A stretch of DNA of 64,000 bases, from NCBI GenBank assembly GCA_949499105.1, contig CATEFX010000057.1, positions 13,336-77,335 of the forward strand, in the 5' to 3' direction. Below, piece by piece: positions 15,637 to 30,651 of this stretch; the first letter of the stretch is position 1; each line of letters begins with the position of its first letter. Both the position numbers and the translations under genes were made by a program. The DNA comes from Formosa sp. Hel1_33_131 (lineage in GTDB: Bacteria > Bacteroidota > Bacteroidia > Flavobacteriales > Flavobacteriaceae). Under the pieces are notes generated by a model. It worked only from the letters and a program-made list of their open reading frames with translations, did not search any database and was not told the DNA's origin.

Positions 15637-16452
15637 ATGAAAATGCCTACTATTTCAGTAATTATAAGTACTTACAATCAATCAGAATGGCTTCGAAAAA
15701 CACTTTTAGGTTATGAATGTCAGACTTTTAATTCTTTTGAAATCATTATTGCTGACGATGGTTCTGATAATCGAACAAAATCAGTAATTAATCAGTTTCA
15801 AACTCAATCAACGTTGAGTATTCAGCATATTTGGCATGAAGATCAAGGATTTCAAAAAACAAAAATTTTAAATAAAGCGATCGTTGCTTCTAAAACAGAT
15901 TATTTAATCTTCACAGATGGGGATTGTATTCCACGAAATGATTTTGTGGAAGTACACCATAAAAAGAGACGTTGTAATTCCTTTTTGTCAGGAGGTTATT
16001 TTAAACTTCCCAAAACAATATCTGAACTAATTTCTGATGATGACATAAAGTCTCAAACATGTTTCGATTCAAAATGGCTTTTGAAACATGGATTGAAAAG
16101 GAGTTTTAAATTAAATAAACTATCTTCTAAAGGAGCTAAGGAGGCATTTCTAAATAGATTTACATTCACAAAGCCTTCTTGGAATGGAATGAATTCTTCG
16201 GGTTGAAAAAAAGATCTTATTGCAGTTAATGGTTTTGATACTAGAATGCAATACGGCGGAGAAGATAGAGAATTTGGCGAGCGCTTGGTGAATTATAATA
16301 TTAAACCAATTCAGATTAGGTATAGTGCTGTTTGTGTCCATTTATTTCATTTAAGAGGTTATAAAAATGAAGAGACTATTAAATATAATAATGAAATTAG
16401 GTCTCTAACATCAAAGCAAAAATCTACAAAAACTTTATCTGGAATGGATTAG
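15637..16452 (+). pseudogene. GT2 glycosyltransferase (paralog of 9453..10283) with in-frame TGA at 16204-16206
   Basis: Reads ...NSSG*KKDLIAVNGFDTRMQYGGEDRE in one frame; paralog has NVSGWKKDIIAVNGFDERMQYGGQDRE. Confidence 0.85.
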
Positions 16453-16520
16453 TTTAATTGTATGAGTTAGTAAAAATTTTATACGCACTTTCTGAATTTT
16501 AAACTGTATTTTTGCGTTCT

Positions 16521-16931
16521 ATGGGACGTCTTTTAGCAATTGATTATGGGAGTAAACGTACGGGAATCGCCGTCACGGATGAGATGCAAATTATTGCATC
16601 GGGCTTAACAACGGTCGAAACAAAAACGCTGATACCGTTTTTAAAAACCTATTGCGAGAAAGAATCTGTTGAACTGTTTCTTATTGGATTGCCAAAACAA
16701 ATGAATAATGAGCTTTCGGAAAGTGAGCCTTTAATCTTGAAATTTATACAAACTTTAAAAAAACAAATCCCACAGATTCCAATCGAACGTGTCGATGAAC
16801 GCTTTACGTCTAAGATGGCTTTTCAAACGATGATTGACAGTGGTCTCAATAAAAAACAACGAAAAAACAAGGCACTGGTCGATGAAATTAGTGCGACCCT
16901 TATTCTGCAATCCTATCTTCACAATAAATAA
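16521..16931 (+). CDS. ruvX: Holliday junction resolvase-like / pre-16S rRNA nuclease YqgF
   Basis: LLAIDYGSKRTGIA, VDERFTS, VDEISATLILQSYL; TATTTTTG promoter motif at 16507-16514. Confidence 0.93.
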   Translation: MGRLLAIDYGSKRTGIAVTDEMQIIASGLTTVETKTLIPFLKTYCEKESVELFLIGLPKQMNNELSESEPLILKFIQTLKKQIPQIPIERVDERFTSKMAFQTMIDSGLNKKQRKNKALVDEISATLILQSYLHNK

Positions 16932-23477: not shown

Positions 23478-23666
23478 TATGGTTGTTCAGTCAAATTAAT
23501 GCCAACTCGTTATATATCAACAAAAGGGTGTGTTAACGGATATATATTCCGGGATAACACAATGTTTTAGTTGTTATTATATGTAACTGATTTCAGTGCA
23601 AACATCTAGCTTACTCCCCAAATCAATAATTCAAATAAAAAAATCGCTTACATTCGGTCAAGCTAC

Positions 23667-23932
23667 TTATGAAGAATCAGATTTGGGATCTAAGACTTAT
23701 ATAAAAGTAAAAAATAATCACGGATAACCAAATATATACTTGATTATTAACCCTTTAGTTTTGCAAGTTATGAGGATCTAATACGCTCGCAGTCTACACC
23801 GGCTGTAGCTGTCCTAAAATGTATTTTTCTTTCATCTAGATTAAAGCAACTCTTCTTTCATTTTAGGGCTATTTCACTTATTGAGCTGTTCATTTTTTAT
23901 TTTTGCGAAGTCAGGAGACTTCGCAGAGCGGG
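23667..23932. repeat. 266-bp direct repeat, copy A (promoter-like segment plus REP/MITE-like hairpin element)
   Basis: About 6 mismatches to 30386-30651. Confidence 0.95.
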
Positions 23933-23974: not shown

Positions 23975-26830
23975 TTAATTTCCAGTTATTCCGTTTATAA
24001 ATGTCTCAACAAATTCAACAATCTGTTTTAATATTTTATCTCCTAATTCTTTACGTTTTAATACAGACGGTTTTTTGCCTATTATTAAATCCAACACTTC
24101 ATCTCGCAATGGTTCACGTTCTGCATACAAATAGTTTTCAATCAGTTTTTGTGTTTTCTCTTCCGATAGATTCTCTTGTGTCGTTAGTTTCTTAAACGCT
24201 TTATTTTGCGCTTCATTCCAAAATACATCAAATGCTTGTGGAATATCTTCTGTATTTTCGATGCGAGGGATATACTCTTTAATAAACTTTTGAATTAACT
24301 CTCTTTTACTTCTTAGATTTACTTCTGTATTCAGTAAGTTTGAAATTTCTTGTTCTGTTTTGGTGACGTCTTTTTGAGTATCCGATTTTAGTTTAATTAA
24401 TAATTTAATGATGTAATTTACATTGATTTCGTCTCGGTGAATTAATTCCAATTCAAAATCTACATCTTCTAATATCGAAACCTTTTCTTTTTCGGTATCG
24501 CTTTTTACTTTTTGCCACAAATCTAAATACTTGCTTTTGTAATCTTCAAAAAGTTGCTCGTCCATGGCTAAATCTTCCCACTCAAAATCTGAAAACGCAT
24601 TTAGAATGTTCCGAACACGCATTAATTGACGAAAAGCCTTGATGAATTCCAATTCATCATCTTCAGAAACTAAATCGTTTACACTCTCTACGTCTGCTGT
24701 GATTTTAATTAATTCGTCATAGGAATCATTAAATTTTTCTACATAATCATCATACGGTTTCATAATGATTACTTCAATGGCTTCTTTATTACTAAACAAG
24801 GTTATGGCTTCATCGGTTGCCTTTTTTAGGTTTCTAAACACCACAATATTTCCTTGCGATTTTTGTTCGTTTAGTATTCTATTGGTTCTTGAATAGGCTT
24901 GAATTAAACCGTGATATTTTAGATTTTTATCTACGTACAACGTATTTAATGGCGGACTGTCAAAACCTGTTAAAAACATATTGACGACCAATAAAATATC
25001 AACTTTTCGTTCTTTTACTTTCTTTGATATATCATTGTAATAATTGTAAAACGACTGACTGTCTTTGGTAGAAAACTTAGTGCCAAACATGGTGTTATAG
25101 TCCACAATATAGTCGTCTAATTTTTCTCTACTGTGTACATTCATTCCGTACAAAGCAGGCGATTCTTCGACGACTGATACTTCTTCTGGAATAAACCCAT
25201 TGGCATCTGCATCTTCTTCATTGGCTACATAACTAAAAATGGTGGCAATTTTTAAATTGTGTTTACCTTCTTCTTTTTTCTTCTGAAATAAATCGTAATA
25301 CTTTATCAGGTTTTTCACACCACTTACTGTAAACATCCCTGTAAATTCTTTTTGGTGCGTCTTTCGGTGATGATTGGCAATAATGTAATCGGTAATTTTT
25401 TCTAAACGTGCTTCACTATCCATTAACTCTCTGGTGTCAATGTCTTCTACTTCAATATCTATTTCGGTTGCGGACGCGGAACGTTTATATTTTCCGACAT
25501 ATTCTATAGAAAATTTGAGTACGTTTTCATCTTTTATCGCATCTGTAATGACGTATTTGTGTAAACACTCGCCAAATAGTTCTTTTGTAGTTCGTTTCCC
25601 TAATTCGTTTTTTACCGCATTGTCTTTAAAAATAGGGGTTCCTGTAAAACCAAATAGTTGGTTGTTTTGAAAAAAGGCTTTGATTCTGTTGTGTGTTTCT
25701 CCAAATTGCGAACGGTGACATTCATCAAAAATGAATACTAATCTGTCTGTGCGACTCGCCTCCATTTTAGATAAATACTTGGCTTTGCTTATGGCCGTAT
25801 TTAGTTTTTGAATGGTAGTAACAATTAGTTTTGTATCGTCTCCAAATTGCTTAACTAAGGATTTTGTATTGTCTGTACCATCAATACAACCTTTGCTAAA
25901 ACTGTTAAACTCTTTAGTGGTTTGGTAATCTAAATCTTTTCTATCGACCACAAAAACCACTTTTTTAATCTGTGGCATATTCATTATGATCTGACTTGCC
26001 TTAAAAGAAGTTAGGGTTTTACCCGACCCCGTAGTGTGCCAAATATAGGCGTTGTTATTTGAGTTTTCTACTTGATTTACAAGGGTTTCTACGGCATAAA
26101 ATTGATACGGTCTAAGTACCATTAAAATTTTATGGGTTTCATTGAGTACACTATACTTACTTATCATTTTTGAAATATGACAAGGCTCTAAAAAATCACC
26201 AGTAAAACCGTTTAAAATATTGGTTTGACGTTTGTTTTCTTTATCCGTCCAATAGAATGTTTGTTTGAAAGATTGGTGTCGGTTATTGGCATAATACTTT
26301 GTATTTACACCATTGCTGATAACGAATATTTGCACGTATTGAAACAAAGCCGATTTTGCACCAAACGAATGCCTTTGATAGCGGTTTATTTGATTAAAGG
26401 CTTCCTTCATTTCCAGACCTCTACGCTTTAGTTCTATTTGCACCAATGGCAAACCATTCATAAGCAAAGTAACGTCATAACGGTTTTTGTAACTCCCTTC
26501 CATAGTCACTTGGTGTGTGACTTGAAATTGGTTTTGACACCAAAAAGCGGTATTAAAGAACTCAAAATACAGGTTGTCGCCATTATCGCGTTCTATATGT
26601 TGTTTTGCTCGTAGTGTTTTGGCTTTTTCAAAAACAGAACCTTTGCTCAATATATTTAAAACACGCGCAAATTCGTTTTTAGAAAACGTAATACTATTGT
26701 GCTTTTCTAACTGCGTTTTTAGATTGGCAACCAAAGCGTTTTCGTCTTTAATGATGACTTTTTCGTACTTCAACTTTTGCAGTTGAGCCACCAATTGGTT
26801 TTCTAATACTTGTTCGGGTTGTGTGCTCAT
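23975..26830 (-). CDS. hsdR: Type I restriction endonuclease subunit R
   Basis: DVTLLMNGLPLVQIELK nuclease motif, HTTGSGKT, DECHRS, FTGTP, MFLTGFD, QAYSRTNR; likely start ATG 26830. Confidence 0.95.
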   Translation of the reverse strand: MSTQPEQVLENQLVAQLQKLKYEKVIIKDENALVANLKTQLEKHNSITFSKNEFARVLNILSKGSVFEKAKTLRAKQHIERDNGDNLYFEFFNTAFWCQNQFQVTHQVTMEGSYKNRYDVTLLMNGLPLVQIELKRRGLEMKEAFNQINRYQRHSFGAKSALFQYVQIFVISNGVNTKYYANNRHQSFKQTFYWTDKENKRQTNILNGFTGDFLEPCHISKMISKYSVLNETHKILMVLRPYQFYAVETLVNQVENSNNNAYIWHTTGSGKTLTSFKASQIIMNMPQIKKVVFVVDRKDLDYQTTKEFNSFSKGCIDGTDNTKSLVKQFGDDTKLIVTTIQKLNTAISKAKYLSKMEASRTDRLVFIFDECHRSQFGETHNRIKAFFQNNQLFGFTGTPIFKDNAVKNELGKRTTKELFGECLHKYVITDAIKDENVLKFSIEYVGKYKRSASATEIDIEVEDIDTRELMDSEARLEKITDYIIANHHRKTHQKEFTGMFTVSGVKNLIKYYDLFQKKKEEGKHNLKIATIFSYVANEEDADANGFIPEEVSVVEESPALYGMNVHSREKLDDYIVDYNTMFGTKFSTKDSQSFYNYYNDISKKVKERKVDILLVVNMFLTGFDSPPLNTLYVDKNLKYHGLIQAYSRTNRILNEQKSQGNIVVFRNLKKATDEAITLFSNKEAIEVIIMKPYDDYVEKFNDSYDELIKITADVESVNDLVSEDDELEFIKAFRQLMRVRNILNAFSDFEWEDLAMDEQLFEDYKSKYLDLWQKVKSDTEKEKVSILEDVDFELELIHRDEINVNYIIKLLIKLKSDTQKDVTKTEQEISNLLNTEVNLRSKRELIQKFIKEYIPRIENTEDIPQAFDVFWNEAQNKAFKKLTTQENLSEEKTQKLIENYLYAEREPLRDEVLDLIIGKKPSVLKRKELGDKILKQIVEFVETFINGITGN

Positions 26831-26834
26831 TTTT

Positions 26835-27149
26835 TTAGTCATTGCGAGGAACGAAGCAATCTGCTACCTGTTTAGTTAAGTCATTCCAGTTGGGGTTTAA
26901 TCCATTAATTAATGCAATTTTTGTGGCTCTGTTACCTCCTTTTAGTTGTTTTTCTCTACCAATTGCATCGCCTATCATTTGAAAGGCTTCATAATAGACT
27001 AGTTTGTTAAGATTGTATTTTGCCGTAAAAGACTTCGGGTTTATTTTGTCTTTATGCTGTTGTATGCGTTTCACAATGTTTGCAGTAACACCAATGTATA
27101 AAGTGGTATTGTTTTTATTGGTTAGTATGTATATAAATCCTGGTTTCAT
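26835..27149 (-). CDS. Small stand-alone GIY-YIG nuclease (YhbQ/UPF0213-like)
   Basis: GFIYIL...LYIGVT..KRIQQHK..FTAKY..LVYYE..AIGREKQLK..NPNWNDL. Confidence 0.92.
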   Translation of the reverse strand: MKPGFIYILTNKNNTTLYIGVTANIVKRIQQHKDKINPKSFTAKYNLNKLVYYEAFQMIGDAIGREKQLKGGNRATKIALINGLNPNWNDLTKQVADCFVPRND

Positions 27150-27399
27150 TTTTTTCTGTTATTGCGAGGTGTTACTCGTCGTCATTGCGAAACTTCTTGC
27201 TATTGCGAGGTGTTACTTTTCGTCATTGCGAGGCCTTACTTTTTCGTCACTGCGAGGCTTTACTTTTCGTCATTGCGAGGCTTTGCTTTTCGTCATTGCG
27301 AGGCCTTACCTTTCGTCATTGCGAGGCACGAAGCAATCTGTTTAATAATTCCTGTTTATTTAAACAGATTGCCGCGTTCGTGCCTCTCTCGCAATGACG
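26838..27399. mobile_element. Putative REP-bounded GIY-YIG element
   Basis: Inverted ends GTCATTGCGAG / CTCGCAATGAC, flanked by TTA at 26835-26837 and 27400-27402, located exactly between hsdS stop and hsdR start. Confidence 0.65.
27158..27399 (+). repeat. Tandem array of 8 GTCATTGCGAGG-core units (about 23 bp) ending in a full REP-like hairpin
   Basis: Units start at 27158, 27181, 27199, 27222, 27246, 27269, 27292 and 27315; the last pairs with 27360-27398. Confidence 0.92.
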
Positions 27400-28628
27400 T
27401 TACACAAACATTTTTTGTAACACCCCTTTTTTATAGGTTTTGGTCCTTTCTATTTGTTTGTTTATCGTATTTATTTTGTTATCTATTTTTGATAGGAAAT
27501 CAGCGATTTTGGTTTGTTCTTTTATACTTGGAAAATTTACTTTAATATCTTTAATTATTTTTAGGTTTAAACCACCTCTTCCTCCATCTCCAGTAGACAT
27601 TCTTCTTATTTCTTCATATCTCATATCGAGATTGAAATATAAAAACATTGAATAATAAGTTTCTGGATTTGGCATAATTGAACCTATTGATTGATTAGTA
27701 CAAAGTTCAACTTTATTAATAGCTATTGTACCTCTTGTTTTTCCTTGACCAGCAAGACCTATTAAAATACAATTGATTGGTAGTAATTTGGCACTTGACT
27801 TTTTTAACCCTAATTCTGTTATTCTATTTTCAACTTCTGAAACCATTTTCAAATTGAGTTCCCCTGAATTCATCCAACGAATTTTTCCATTCCAATAATC
27901 CTTTCTTAGTGTGCTTGGTGTACCTCCTGCGGTTATTTTGGTAACTTCCCCCAATTTCTTCTCTTCCCACTCAGGAAAACCATTTTTATTATCATCTTTA
28001 AACCGTAGTTGTTGGCTAAAGATTTGTTGCATAATTCCTTTTTTGTATTGCTCTAAACCGTTTAGTTTTTCTTGTAATTGGTTTAGTTTTTGGTCTACAA
28101 TGCTAAAGAAATGGGCTATTTTTTTTGTTCTGGTAGAGTTGGGAAGGGGAGTTTGATTTTTGAAATATTGTCAAAAAATAAATATTGTCTTACTCCACCT
28201 TCTTGAAACCTTAAGACAGAAGTTTTAAAACTATTGGTTTCTAAAAAAGCTAATAAAAAAGAGTCGTCAATTATATCATCCGTTTGAAAGCAAACATAAA
28301 GCGAACTAATTAAAATATTTGATAAGTTGTCGCTATATCCAATAGAACCTACATTTATTCTTGCAGGATTATAAGCAAAAGTATTAGGTTGAATGATTTT
28401 ATAAATACTTATATCAAAACCTCTATCATTACTATTAACACCATCAAATTGCTCCGATTGTGGAAGGAAACCTTCTTTGTTATTAATTGAATAGACAGGT
28501 AGGTTTAAATTTTCTTTATTCTTCTTGTCAGTTTTTTTAATATGTTTCCCTAACTGCTCATTTATCCAATCGGCTTTAAACTCTGGAAAGCGAACCAATG
28601 GGATCTTGTTTTTTAGCTTGTCCATCAT
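27400..28628 (-). pseudogene. hsdS: Type I R-M specificity subunit, split by -1 frameshift in an A8 tract (28119-28126)
   Basis: ORFs 28116..28628 (TRD1, ends PEQKK*) and 27400..28032 (TRD2 plus C-terminal helix); one extra A restores PEQKKIAHFFSIVDQKL...YKKGIMQQIF. Confidence 0.9.
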
Positions 28629-30200
28629 TTAAAAAGGGGTGTCTATATTTAATTCTTTACACAAAGCAATGAGTTCTTTGTCGGTTTCTTGCATACTGGT
28701 TTCTAAGGTTTTTAGGGTTTTAGAAACTAGGGCAATATCAACAGGGTCTTCTTCTTCAAAAGTGTTTACATATCTTGGTATGTTCAAATTATAGTCGTTT
28801 TCAGCTATTTCTTCTAAAGTAGCTACATAACTATATTTGTCTGTAACCGTTCTGTTTATGTAGGTATTTACAATAGTTTCTATATCTATAGCACGCAACA
28901 TATTTTGTGTTTTCACCTTTTCAAAATGTTGGCTACTATCTATAAATAATATATCCTCAGGATTTTCTCTACATTTTTTAAAGACTAAAATACACGTTGG
29001 TATGCTGGTCCCGTAAAATATATTGGCAGGTAAACCAATGACGGCATCTAAATAGTTTCGGTCTTCAATTAAGTATCTTCTAATGTGTTGTTCTGCACCG
29101 CCTCTAAACAAAGCGCCGTGTGGCAAAACGAGAGCCATAGTTCCGTTTTCTGCCAAGTGGTGAATCATATGTTGTACAAAGGCAAAATCGGCTTTGCTTT
29201 TTGGGGCTAGTTTTCCGTATTGGCTAAACCGATCATCACTTGTAAATAATGGGTTAGCACTCCATTGAGCTGAAAAGGGTGGATTGGCTACAATGGCTTC
29301 AAAACGCTCGTCAATATGTTGTGGATGTTCTAAAGTATCTTCTTGTTTTATGTCAAATTTTCGGTAATGAATATCGTGCAAAATCATATTCATACGCGCC
29401 AAGTTGTAAGTCGTACGGTTAAGCTCTTGTCCGTAAAAGTTGGTTACGCTTTCTACTTCTTTTGCCACACGTAATAAAAGAGAACCCGAACCACAAGTTG
29501 GGTCGTAAACCGATTTTAGTTTTGTTTTTCCTGTGGTCACCAATTTTGCTAAAACTTTACTAACTTCTTGTGGTGTGTAAAATTCGCCTGCTTTTTTTCC
29601 AGCTCCACTTGCAAACTGCCCAATTAGATATTCGTAAGCATCTCCTAAAACGTCTGTCTCTGTGTTTTCAAGATTGAAATCAATTTTATCTAAATGCGAT
29701 AACACTTTGGCAATAATATCATTTCTTGCTTCTGGTGATTTCCCCAGTTTGGTAGAGTTTAAGTCCATATCCTCAAACAGATTGTCAAAATCTTCTTCGC
29801 TTTCCGTTCCCATTGTTGTGAGTTGGATATTGGTCAGGATTCTCTGTAAATCTTCTAATATGAAATTTGAAATGCCTTCGATATCACTATTTCCTCTTTT
29901 TGAAATTTGGCTAAACAATTCACTAGGTTTTAAGAAATACCCTAGTTTTTCAACCGCTTCTTCTTTAATAGCTTGGATGTATGCTTGTCCGTTTTGAGTA
30001 TTTTCGTTGATGCTTGTAAAGACCATTCCATCTGGTTTGAGAATTGTATTGGCATACATTCGCATCTTTTCAGATAGATATTTGTAGAAAATGAATCCTA
30101 AAATATAATCCCGAAACTCGTCTGCATTCATTTTTCCTCTAAGCGTATTTGCTATATTCCACAGTTGTTGCTCGAGTTGTTTTTTTTGGTCTTCACTCAT
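28629..30200 (-). CDS. hsdM: Type I restriction-modification methyltransferase subunit M
   Basis: LWNIANTLRG, GEFYTP, YDPTCGSGSLL, ANPPF, YNLNIPRYV. Confidence 0.96.
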   Translation of the reverse strand: MSEDQKKQLEQQLWNIANTLRGKMNADEFRDYILGFIFYKYLSEKMRMYANTILKPDGMVFTSINENTQNGQAYIQAIKEEAVEKLGYFLKPSELFSQISKRGNSDIEGISNFILEDLQRILTNIQLTTMGTESEEDFDNLFEDMDLNSTKLGKSPEARNDIIAKVLSHLDKIDFNLENTETDVLGDAYEYLIGQFASGAGKKAGEFYTPQEVSKVLAKLVTTGKTKLKSVYDPTCGSGSLLLRVAKEVESVTNFYGQELNRTTYNLARMNMILHDIHYRKFDIKQEDTLEHPQHIDERFEAIVANPPFSAQWSANPLFTSDDRFSQYGKLAPKSKADFAFVQHMIHHLAENGTMALVLPHGALFRGGAEQHIRRYLIEDRNYLDAVIGLPANIFYGTSIPTCILVFKKCRENPEDILFIDSSQHFEKVKTQNMLRAIDIETIVNTYINRTVTDKYSYVATLEEIAENDYNLNIPRYVNTFEEEDPVDIALVSKTLKTLETSMQETDKELIALCKELNIDTPF

Positions 30201-30385
30201 TTATTTTAATCTATTTTTTCTTCATGTTACCTCCACTGTTAGATCTATTTTTATGCTGCTACCAACCCAATATTTACAATCAATCGTTTGAAATCATATA
30301 CCATATTATCTGTTGCTAGTTCCCATTAGGATGGTGTACACTTGCAATTCTTAATAAAATAATATCTAAATGTTGGTTCTATTGG

Positions 30386-30651
30386 TTATGAAGAATCAGA
30401 TTTGGGATCTAAGACTTATATAAAAGTAAAAAATAATCACGGATAACCAAATATATACTTGATTATTAACTCTTTAGTTTTGCAAGTTATGAGGATCTAA
30501 TACGCTCGCAGTCTACACCGGCTGTAGCTGTCCTAAAATGTATTTTTCTTTCATCTCGATTGATGCAACCCTTCTTTCATTTTAGGGCTATTTCATTTAT
30601 TGAGCTGTTCATTTTTTATTTTTGCGAAGTCAGGAGACTTCGCAGAGCGGG
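30386..30651. repeat. 266-bp direct repeat, copy B
   Basis: Near-identical to 23667-23932; 30361-30499 also matches 31738-31876. Confidence 0.95.

Follow-up and report, generated by a model that had tools for sequence, protein, structure and literature searches.

A minimal GIY-YIG nuclease gene and its CGTC-tagged repeats as a probable Ssn-type guest between hsdS and hsdR of a Formosa type I restriction operon

The 64,000-nucleotide stretch of Formosa sp. Hel1_33_131 DNA analysed here (assembly GCA_949499105.1, contig CATEFX010000057.1, positions 13,336 to 77,335; hereafter the window, in which all positions without a prefix are counted) contained a type I restriction-modification (R-M) operon with a small GIY-YIG nuclease gene, here called ssn, and a set of repeats between hsdS and hsdR. 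The minus strand carried every gene of the region: hsdM, two hsdS open reading frames (ORFs), ssn, and hsdR. The product of hsdM (28629–30200) matched Pfam N6_Mtase (E 4.5e-113) and HsdM_N. The hsdS gene was composed of two ORFs with about 80 nt between them, both of which matched Methylase_S: an N-terminal half of 170 residues (28116–28628, E 3.8e-6) and a C-terminal half of 210 residues (27400–28032, E 2.4e-27), which ended in the TAA at 27402–27400. The ssn gene (26835–27149, stop TAA at 26837–26835) encoded a single-domain GIY-YIG nuclease of 104 residues (P0001), and the ATG of hsdR (23975–26830, start at 26830–26828) was located 4 nt past its stop. HSDR_N, SWI2_SNF2, T1R_D3-like, and EcoR124_C domains were found in HsdR. 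The hsdR start at 26830–26828 was set by homology to relatives, whose proteins begin with MSTQPEQ; for this reason an in-frame ATG inside the repeat (26842), taken as the start in the ORF list, was rejected.

The cassette between hsdS and hsdR was bounded by inverted repeat units. One end was a complete unit, (A)GTCATTGCGAGGAACGAAGCAATCTG (26838–26863, plus strand), which overlapped the final eight codons of ssn, so that the last residues of the nuclease, DCFVPRND, were encoded by the repeat itself. The other end was CTCGCAATGACG (27388–27399, plus strand). The two ends formed a perfect inverted match of 11 nt (I9), which continued with mismatches, and the unit was written on its tagged strand as CGTCATTGCGAGGCACGAAGCAATCTG, with the pattern CGTCATT-N14-AATCTG. 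A head-to-head dimer of two complete units (27314–27399; inverted repeats I2, I7, and I12) began directly past the hsdS stop, between hsdS and ssn, and folded into an 86-nt hairpin with a free energy of about -33 kcal/mol and a z value of -10 on either strand. At 27152–27327 (plus strand), 7.8 copies of a 23-bp unit, TTTTCGTCATTGCGAGGCCTTAC, were arranged in a single orientation (Tandem Repeats Finder score 194); these array units retained the tag and the 5' half alone, CGTCATTGCGAGG. Neither a single repeat unit nor the 23-bp array (z 0.06) folded better than shuffled sequence. Since a scan of 26500–27700 for sigma-70 promoters and intrinsic terminators gave nothing exceeding shuffles, the hairpin is not claimed as a terminator. 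The sole Rfam match of the region, SpF19 sRNA, was rejected as chance level (22 bits against a threshold of 60).

The cassette was flanked by TTA on both sides (26835–26837 and 27400–27402), which on the coding strand are the TAA stops of the nuclease gene and of hsdS. When the unit and one TTA were deleted in silico, a TAA-AAAA-ATG junction remained. A preliminary description of the locus had correctly given these features, including the inverted ends and their flanking TTA, the nuclease gene as the only gene inside the unit, the repeat-encoded DCFVPRND, and the junction left by removal.

Exact copies of the repeat were concentrated at this locus. The 11-mer GTCATTGCGAG occurred seven times in the 2.1-Mb assembly of 66 contigs, where about 0.5 was expected, and six of the seven copies were at the ssn locus; the arrangement is therefore not a product of chance. 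When one mismatch was permitted in the 12-mer, 17 matches were found in the genome, eight of them at ssn. The seventh exact 11-mer was located on contig C32, and a few degenerate copies were present in the genome. The preliminary description had treated the repeat as a member of a REP (repetitive extragenic palindromic) family and had proposed a genome-wide count of solo copies. This count, which gave the C32 copy as the single exact one outside the locus, does not agree with a dispersed family: in the Formosa genome the repeat is nearly confined to ssn. On C32 itself (16271–16590), the exact tag copy immediately preceded a microsatellite in which the heptamer GTGAAAA/GTGAGAA was repeated about 40 times, and a degenerate unit, CGTCATTTCGAG...GCAATCTC, followed at 16772.

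The pairing of gene and repeat was examined in relatives. One genome per species was scanned, which gave 80 Flavobacteriales loci with homologues of 55–81% identity, of which 78 were intact. In 63 of the 78 loci an exact repeat 10-mer was present within 200 bp upstream of the ATG, and in 61 it was present between -30 and +200 of the stop, against a background of 0–3 per 100-bp bin beyond 500 bp. Complete units were found in 70 of the 78. In nearly all loci GATTGC...CTCGCAATGAC, or its complement, was located directly past the stop, and the in-frame overlap of gene and repeat (..DCF..) recurred in homologues L014, L016, L032, and L045. The distance from ATTGC to GCAAT was most often 10 nt, and additional peaks were seen at 16, 18, 22, and 24 nt. 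The enrichment of repeats near homologues, put forward as a check in the preliminary description, was thus obtained, and the partnership of nuclease and repeat that it proposed was borne out: the nuclease and the CGTC-tagged repeat are a specific pair.

The same association was seen at the level of the family, where 150 genera were sampled with one genome each (homologue cut-off E ≤ 1e-10). The 11-mer occurred 0–44 times per genome, compared with 0–2 times for the reversed control, with a mean of 4.3 in genomes with an Ssn homologue and 1.8 in those without. Ten or more copies were present in 14 of 84 genomes with a homologue and in 2 of 66 without (Mann-Whitney p = 6e-4, a test which overstates the difference, since related genomes are not independent). 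Genome G356 (91% complete, 220 contigs) had the most copies, 44, and no Ssn homologue at the same cut-off. Genome G024 likewise had 10 tag copies and no homologue at that cut-off; in one of its loci (L095, C1:3568200–3569400) a 402-bp segment was tandemly duplicated, and at the end of each copy a terminator-like hairpin preceded two solo CGTC-type units.

These distributions bear on the proposal that the repeats are ordinary REP or REPIN elements, moved by a REP-associated tyrosine transposase (RAYT) encoded elsewhere, with the GIY-YIG gene as an incidental neighbour. The genome did contain one Y1_Tnp-like ORF (C19:221033–221260, 32 bits), but no repeat unit was found within 1.5 kb of it, and linkage to a RAYT was rejected. 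The repeat bracketed the GIY-YIG gene in about 80% of the 78 loci, and Di Nocera et al. (2013, BMC Genomics 14:522, PMC3733652), who catalogued repeats of the CGTC type, found none flanking a RAYT. This proposal is close to refuted. The preliminary description, which had set the repeats apart from RAYTs, stood in that part, whereas its assignment of them to a REP family did not, with six of the seven exact copies at one locus. The locus does share with REPIN/RAYT systems the hairpin dimers and an enzyme gene present once, with inverted copies of its presumed substrate repeat on either side. It differs in the fold of the enzyme, which is HUH there and GIY-YIG here, in the lack of RAYT linkage, and in its low copy number: the high dispersed number typical of REPIN/RAYT was seen neither here, with seven exact 11-mers, nor in the 150 genera (0–44 per genome). 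The catalogued CGTC-tagged REPs are closer, sharing a 5' CGTC or TGTC tag, a stem starting with AT, a mostly head-to-head dimeric arrangement, and no dedicated RAYT. They have 8–9-bp stems with 4–5-nt loops, however, were catalogued mainly in Alphaproteobacteria, and were not assigned a partner enzyme (PMC3733652).

A system with such a partner enzyme has been described. Ssn proteins are single-domain GIY-YIG proteins (CDD cd10448, GIY-YIG_unchar_3) flanked by oriented CGTC-tagged hairpin repeats, for which the general name is SRM and the Neisseria name NTS (Chenal et al. 2025, Nat Commun 16:2388, PMC11893778). At least one SRM is present near 71% of Ssn homologues, and SRMs are present on both sides of 42%. 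Four purified enzymes of the Ssn family, which has tested members in Neisseria and Wolbachia, cleaved only single-stranded DNA (ssDNA), each a short way upstream of the repeat that belongs to it. Transforming ssDNA is restricted by SsnA in Neisseria if it bears NTS, and the NTS-ssnA-NTS arrangement was likened by the authors to an insertion sequence (PMC11893778). Both the enzyme-repeat pairing and the likeness to an insertion sequence were thus published in 2025, and the present locus is no discovery of principle.

P0001 was aligned with this family. It had one Pfam GIY-YIG domain (residues 4–77, E 3.5e-16) and no additional DNA-binding domain; its other family match, T5orf172 (E 3.2e-4), overlapped the same N-terminal stretch. 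The N. gonorrhoeae orthologue of the assayed N. meningitidis SsnA was 47% identical over 91 residues (pairwise E 5e-28), and residues Tyr7, Tyr18, Arg28, and Glu66 of the GIY-YIG site were conserved in the alignment. A tblastn search of the N. gonorrhoeae chromosome with P0001 gave E 6e-17, which is below the homologue threshold of the Ssn study (E < 1e-10). The N. gonorrhoeae locus encoded a protein of 94 residues and had nine canonical NTS repeats within 1.5 kb on either side. The comparison sequences were taken from two N. gonorrhoeae chromosomes (L094, NZ_CP119140.1; 2.17 Mb) that the plasmid collection lists among its plasmids. A search of PDB sequences with the nuclease gave no match, and PADLOC returned weak, partial N-terminal matches alone.

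The same comparison weighs on a further possibility, that P0001 is a free-standing GIY-YIG homing endonuclease of the Seg or I-TevI type, targeting the operon junction on double-stranded DNA. Its GIY-YIG domain and an NCBIfam match to a group I intron endonuclease, sub-threshold at 26.8 bits against a cut-off of 56, would fit such an origin. However, homing endonucleases of this type have a C-terminal DNA-binding domain and one target gene, whereas P0001, at 104 residues, has no DNA-binding extension, its homologues occur next to diverse genes, and it is far closer to SsnA. We consider a homing endonuclease highly improbable.

The genome also encoded two other small GIY-YIG paralogues, which had about 35% identity to P0001 (C30:26289–26567 and C13:70258–70567). 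Each was flanked by a tandem repeat of its own, with a unit of about 38 bp containing CACTGGTTCTCGATACA at C30 and a distinct unit containing GTCACACTGAGCGCAGTCGAAGTG at C13. Both genes were located at contig ends, so that the repeat arrays probably broke the assembly there. Paralogues with different repeats of their own fit the published picture of many enzyme-repeat pairs.

The locus is very probably a member of the Ssn system, in which a minimal GIY-YIG nuclease gene and its cognate CGTC-tagged repeats of the SRM/NTS type form an optional guest in the hsdS-hsdR slot. As in Neisseria, a single-domain protein of about 95–105 residues was encoded, oriented CGTC-tagged repeats bracketed the gene on its 5' and 3' sides, repeat clusters adjoined the gene with the first repeat abutting a stop codon, and the shortest flavobacterial units shared with NTS the form CGTCATT-N14-AATCT. 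The flavobacterial repeats differed in their central stem, which was just ATTGC/GCAAT with a loop of 10–24 nt, in the arrays of tag-only half-units, and in number, with no more than tens of copies in a Flavobacteriaceae genome and about two loci here, compared with hundreds in pathogenic Neisseria. The flavobacterial branch was also found repeatedly inside type I R-M operons.

By analogy with the Neisseria and Wolbachia enzymes, P0001 would bind the tagged strand (CGTCATT-N14-AATCTG) only when it is single-stranded, and would cut just upstream of the tagged unit. Nicking or hairpin formation at the units may then drive local expansion and contraction of the array. Any movement of the cassette, or spread of the repeats, through the nuclease is hypothetical.

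Several observations weigh against the assignment to the Ssn system. The published SRM pattern, HGTCWYN(0-2)YYVSBRHN(0-5)WNVSBRGN(0-2)RNCYNB, had no match in the window, two in the genome, and none in the 78 homologue loci, although this pattern serves for searching and does not define SRMs, and SRMs were found at 71% of homologues in its own paper. A single flavobacterial unit is not a stable hairpin, unlike NTS with its 8-bp stem, so that recognition of the unit may differ from recognition of NTS. P0001 was assigned to Ssn by its homology to SsnA and not by a CDD cd10448 call, the Bacteroidota branch of the family is known from sequence alone, and the Formosa genome would offer the enzyme nearly no other target repeats.

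The junction itself was compared with that of related operons. Type I R-M operons accounted for 16 of the 80 homologue loci, and the order hsdS-ssn-hsdR was seen in at least 11 of these 16, from different genera. A common plan was shared by these junctions: the hsdS stop, often directly followed by (C)GTCATTGCGA, then at least one tag unit, followed by a complete unit, a spacer, inverted units, the ssn ATG, the terminal unit, and hsdR. Comparable arrays of varying length were held between hsdS and ssn, ranging from about 150 nt to 1.3 kb; among L027, L046, L048, and L023, arrays had grown to 0.45–1.3 kb, and in L027 the ssn gene was tandemly duplicated. As judged from these sequences, the repeat arrays appear to turn over fast.

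The regions upstream of another 19 members of the hsdR family were then combined with loci found earlier, for a census of 24 operons. Three junctions were empty (L107, L108, and L116). Ssn was present in three operons, namely the window, G380, and G472, the last together with Fic. The other guests were Fic/DOC (four operons), Abi_2, PDDEXK_4, DUF4268, and DUF3800 (two each), and, in one operon each, a KAP NTPase, a metallophosphoesterase (Metallophos, with HAM1_N), an HTH protein, a pentapeptide protein, a 23S_rRNA_IVP four-helix protein, and an unassigned ORF. The 23S_rRNA_IVP gene (L002:2532–2936, in G024, with hsdR DNA 88% identical) encoded a four-helix bundle of 117 residues in the hsdS/hsdR slot and was flanked on both sides by AATTACGAAT-type repeats; it seems to be another small gene travelling with its own repeats.

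In the empty junctions the hsdS stop and the hsdR start were separated by an A-rich spacer of 11–13 nt. That of L108, whose HsdR N-terminus was 82% identical to that of the window, was TAG-TAATAAAAACT-ATG. Because three homologous operons had empty junctions, the ssn cassette is optional at this position. The search for empty sites suggested in the preliminary description thus succeeded in part: the three empty operons belonged to other genera, and most operons held other guests. The TAAAAAA before hsdR in the window can be read as the original A-rich spacer, with its TAA now serving as the stop of the nuclease ORF. Since this spacer can account for the right-hand TAA, a duplication need not be invoked.

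These data were set against a reading that builds on the preliminary description, in which the cassette is a minimal selfish element that moves autonomously and has recently entered the hsdS/hsdR junction, with a GIY-YIG nickase in place of a transposase and with duplication of TTA. The inverted terminal units, the optional presence of the cassette, the likeness of NTS-ssnA-NTS to an insertion sequence (PMC11893778), and the many unrelated settings in which Ssn cassettes occur, with the upstream gene nearly always in the same orientation, would agree with such an element. However, the supposed TTA duplication consists of two stop codons, of which the right-hand one is explained by the spacer, and no consistent short flanking duplication was found among 11 related hsdS-ssn-hsdR cassettes. 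The cassette was present as one genomic copy, and no near-identical copy was detected in the searched genomes, the nearest protein relative being just about 80% identical. The insertion is old, because the layout was common to at least 11 genera, and a recent landing is not supported. An autonomous element of this kind is improbable. The evidence accords better with an Ssn cassette of some age that occupies, as an optional guest, the accessory slot of a type I R-M operon acquired laterally.

Acquisition of the operon was examined in the genus. Any homologue of P0001 was present in only 4 of 19 species of the window's genus, the best of which was 56% identical, compared with 75–81% in other genera. 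Because congeners mostly lacked a homologue and other genera were closer, the operon and its guest look to have been horizontally acquired as a unit. The entire hsdM-hsdS-ssn-hsdR operon was bracketed by a 299-bp direct repeat (23634–23932 and 30353–30651, 93% identical), through which the module could be gained or lost by recombination.

The hsdS-hsdR slot is known to hold accessory genes. The type IC EcoprrI locus, for example, has the restriction-linked accessory gene PrrC between its hsdS and hsdR genes. The window shared this slot, and its HsdR had the EcoR124_C domain. The guest differed in being a repeat-associated putative ssDNA-nuclease cassette, with a hypothetical functional link to restriction. 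In a quick tree of 95 columns, which was poorly resolved, 11 of the 12 same-slot copies, including that of the window, fell in one clade of 29 (SH-aLRT 96) with poor resolution inside it. Of about 150 Ssn genes in the 150-genus set, 4 were within 3 kb of hsdR, where about 0.5 was expected by a rough estimate; all four were in the subclade of the window, two upstream and two downstream of hsdR. In L016, L058, and L080, HsdR was just 25–27% identical to that of the window, so that these loci are separate associations with restriction operons. The other 64 loci had mixed neighbours, including polysaccharide epimerases, DUF2797, R-M genes of the MmeI/Eco57I type, MazG, and housekeeping genes, and their upstream neighbours were nearly always co-oriented with ssn. 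No description of Ssn genes inside type I operons was found in the literature. The reading that one Ssn subclade, with a flavobacterial repeat variant unseen by the published pattern, has come to reside recurrently in type I restriction operons is offered very tentatively, and we regard it as unlikely.

The nuclease might also be a functional defence accessory, covering conjugation, transformation, and ssDNA phages, entry routes closed to cutting by a type I enzyme that depends on double strands; such a role can coexist with membership in the Ssn system. The 16 loci in type I operons, at least 11 of them with ssn in the same slot and some with a distant HsdR, the excess of Ssn genes near hsdR within one subclade, the use of the slot by typical abortive-infection and toxin guests, and the restriction of NTS-bearing transforming ssDNA by Neisseria SsnA (PMC11893778) argue for it. 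Most Ssn homologues, however, adjoined housekeeping or polysaccharide genes, and the association was mostly that of one clade, hence of few independent events. Any small cassette accumulates in defence islands, cutting at its own repeat offers no obvious recognition of foreign DNA, and the PADLOC matches were weak and partial. A defence role is possible but on balance unlikely.

The homologue set also included L074, from a metagenome-assembled genome labelled "Limnohabitans", which carried Ssn genes of the flavobacterial type. The order-level sample for this label included many genomes of about 0.6 Mb, and NTS was absent from all 301 genomes of the sample. The Limnohabitans label may be wrong.

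What is modestly new at this locus is a repeat variant invisible to the published pattern, together with the repeated association of one subclade with type I operons. The Bacteroidota variant, with its short ATTGC stem, long variable loop, and tag-only arrays, was wholly missed by the SRM pattern, and surveys based on that pattern therefore undercount the association of gene and repeat. The census identified the hsdS-hsdR junction of one restriction-operon family as a guest-gene slot, in which Ssn alternates with Fic, Abi, and nuclease genes and in which true empty sites occur. The repeated linkage of the subclade to type I operons provides a setting for asking whether ssDNA nucleases of this family serve defence or move themselves.

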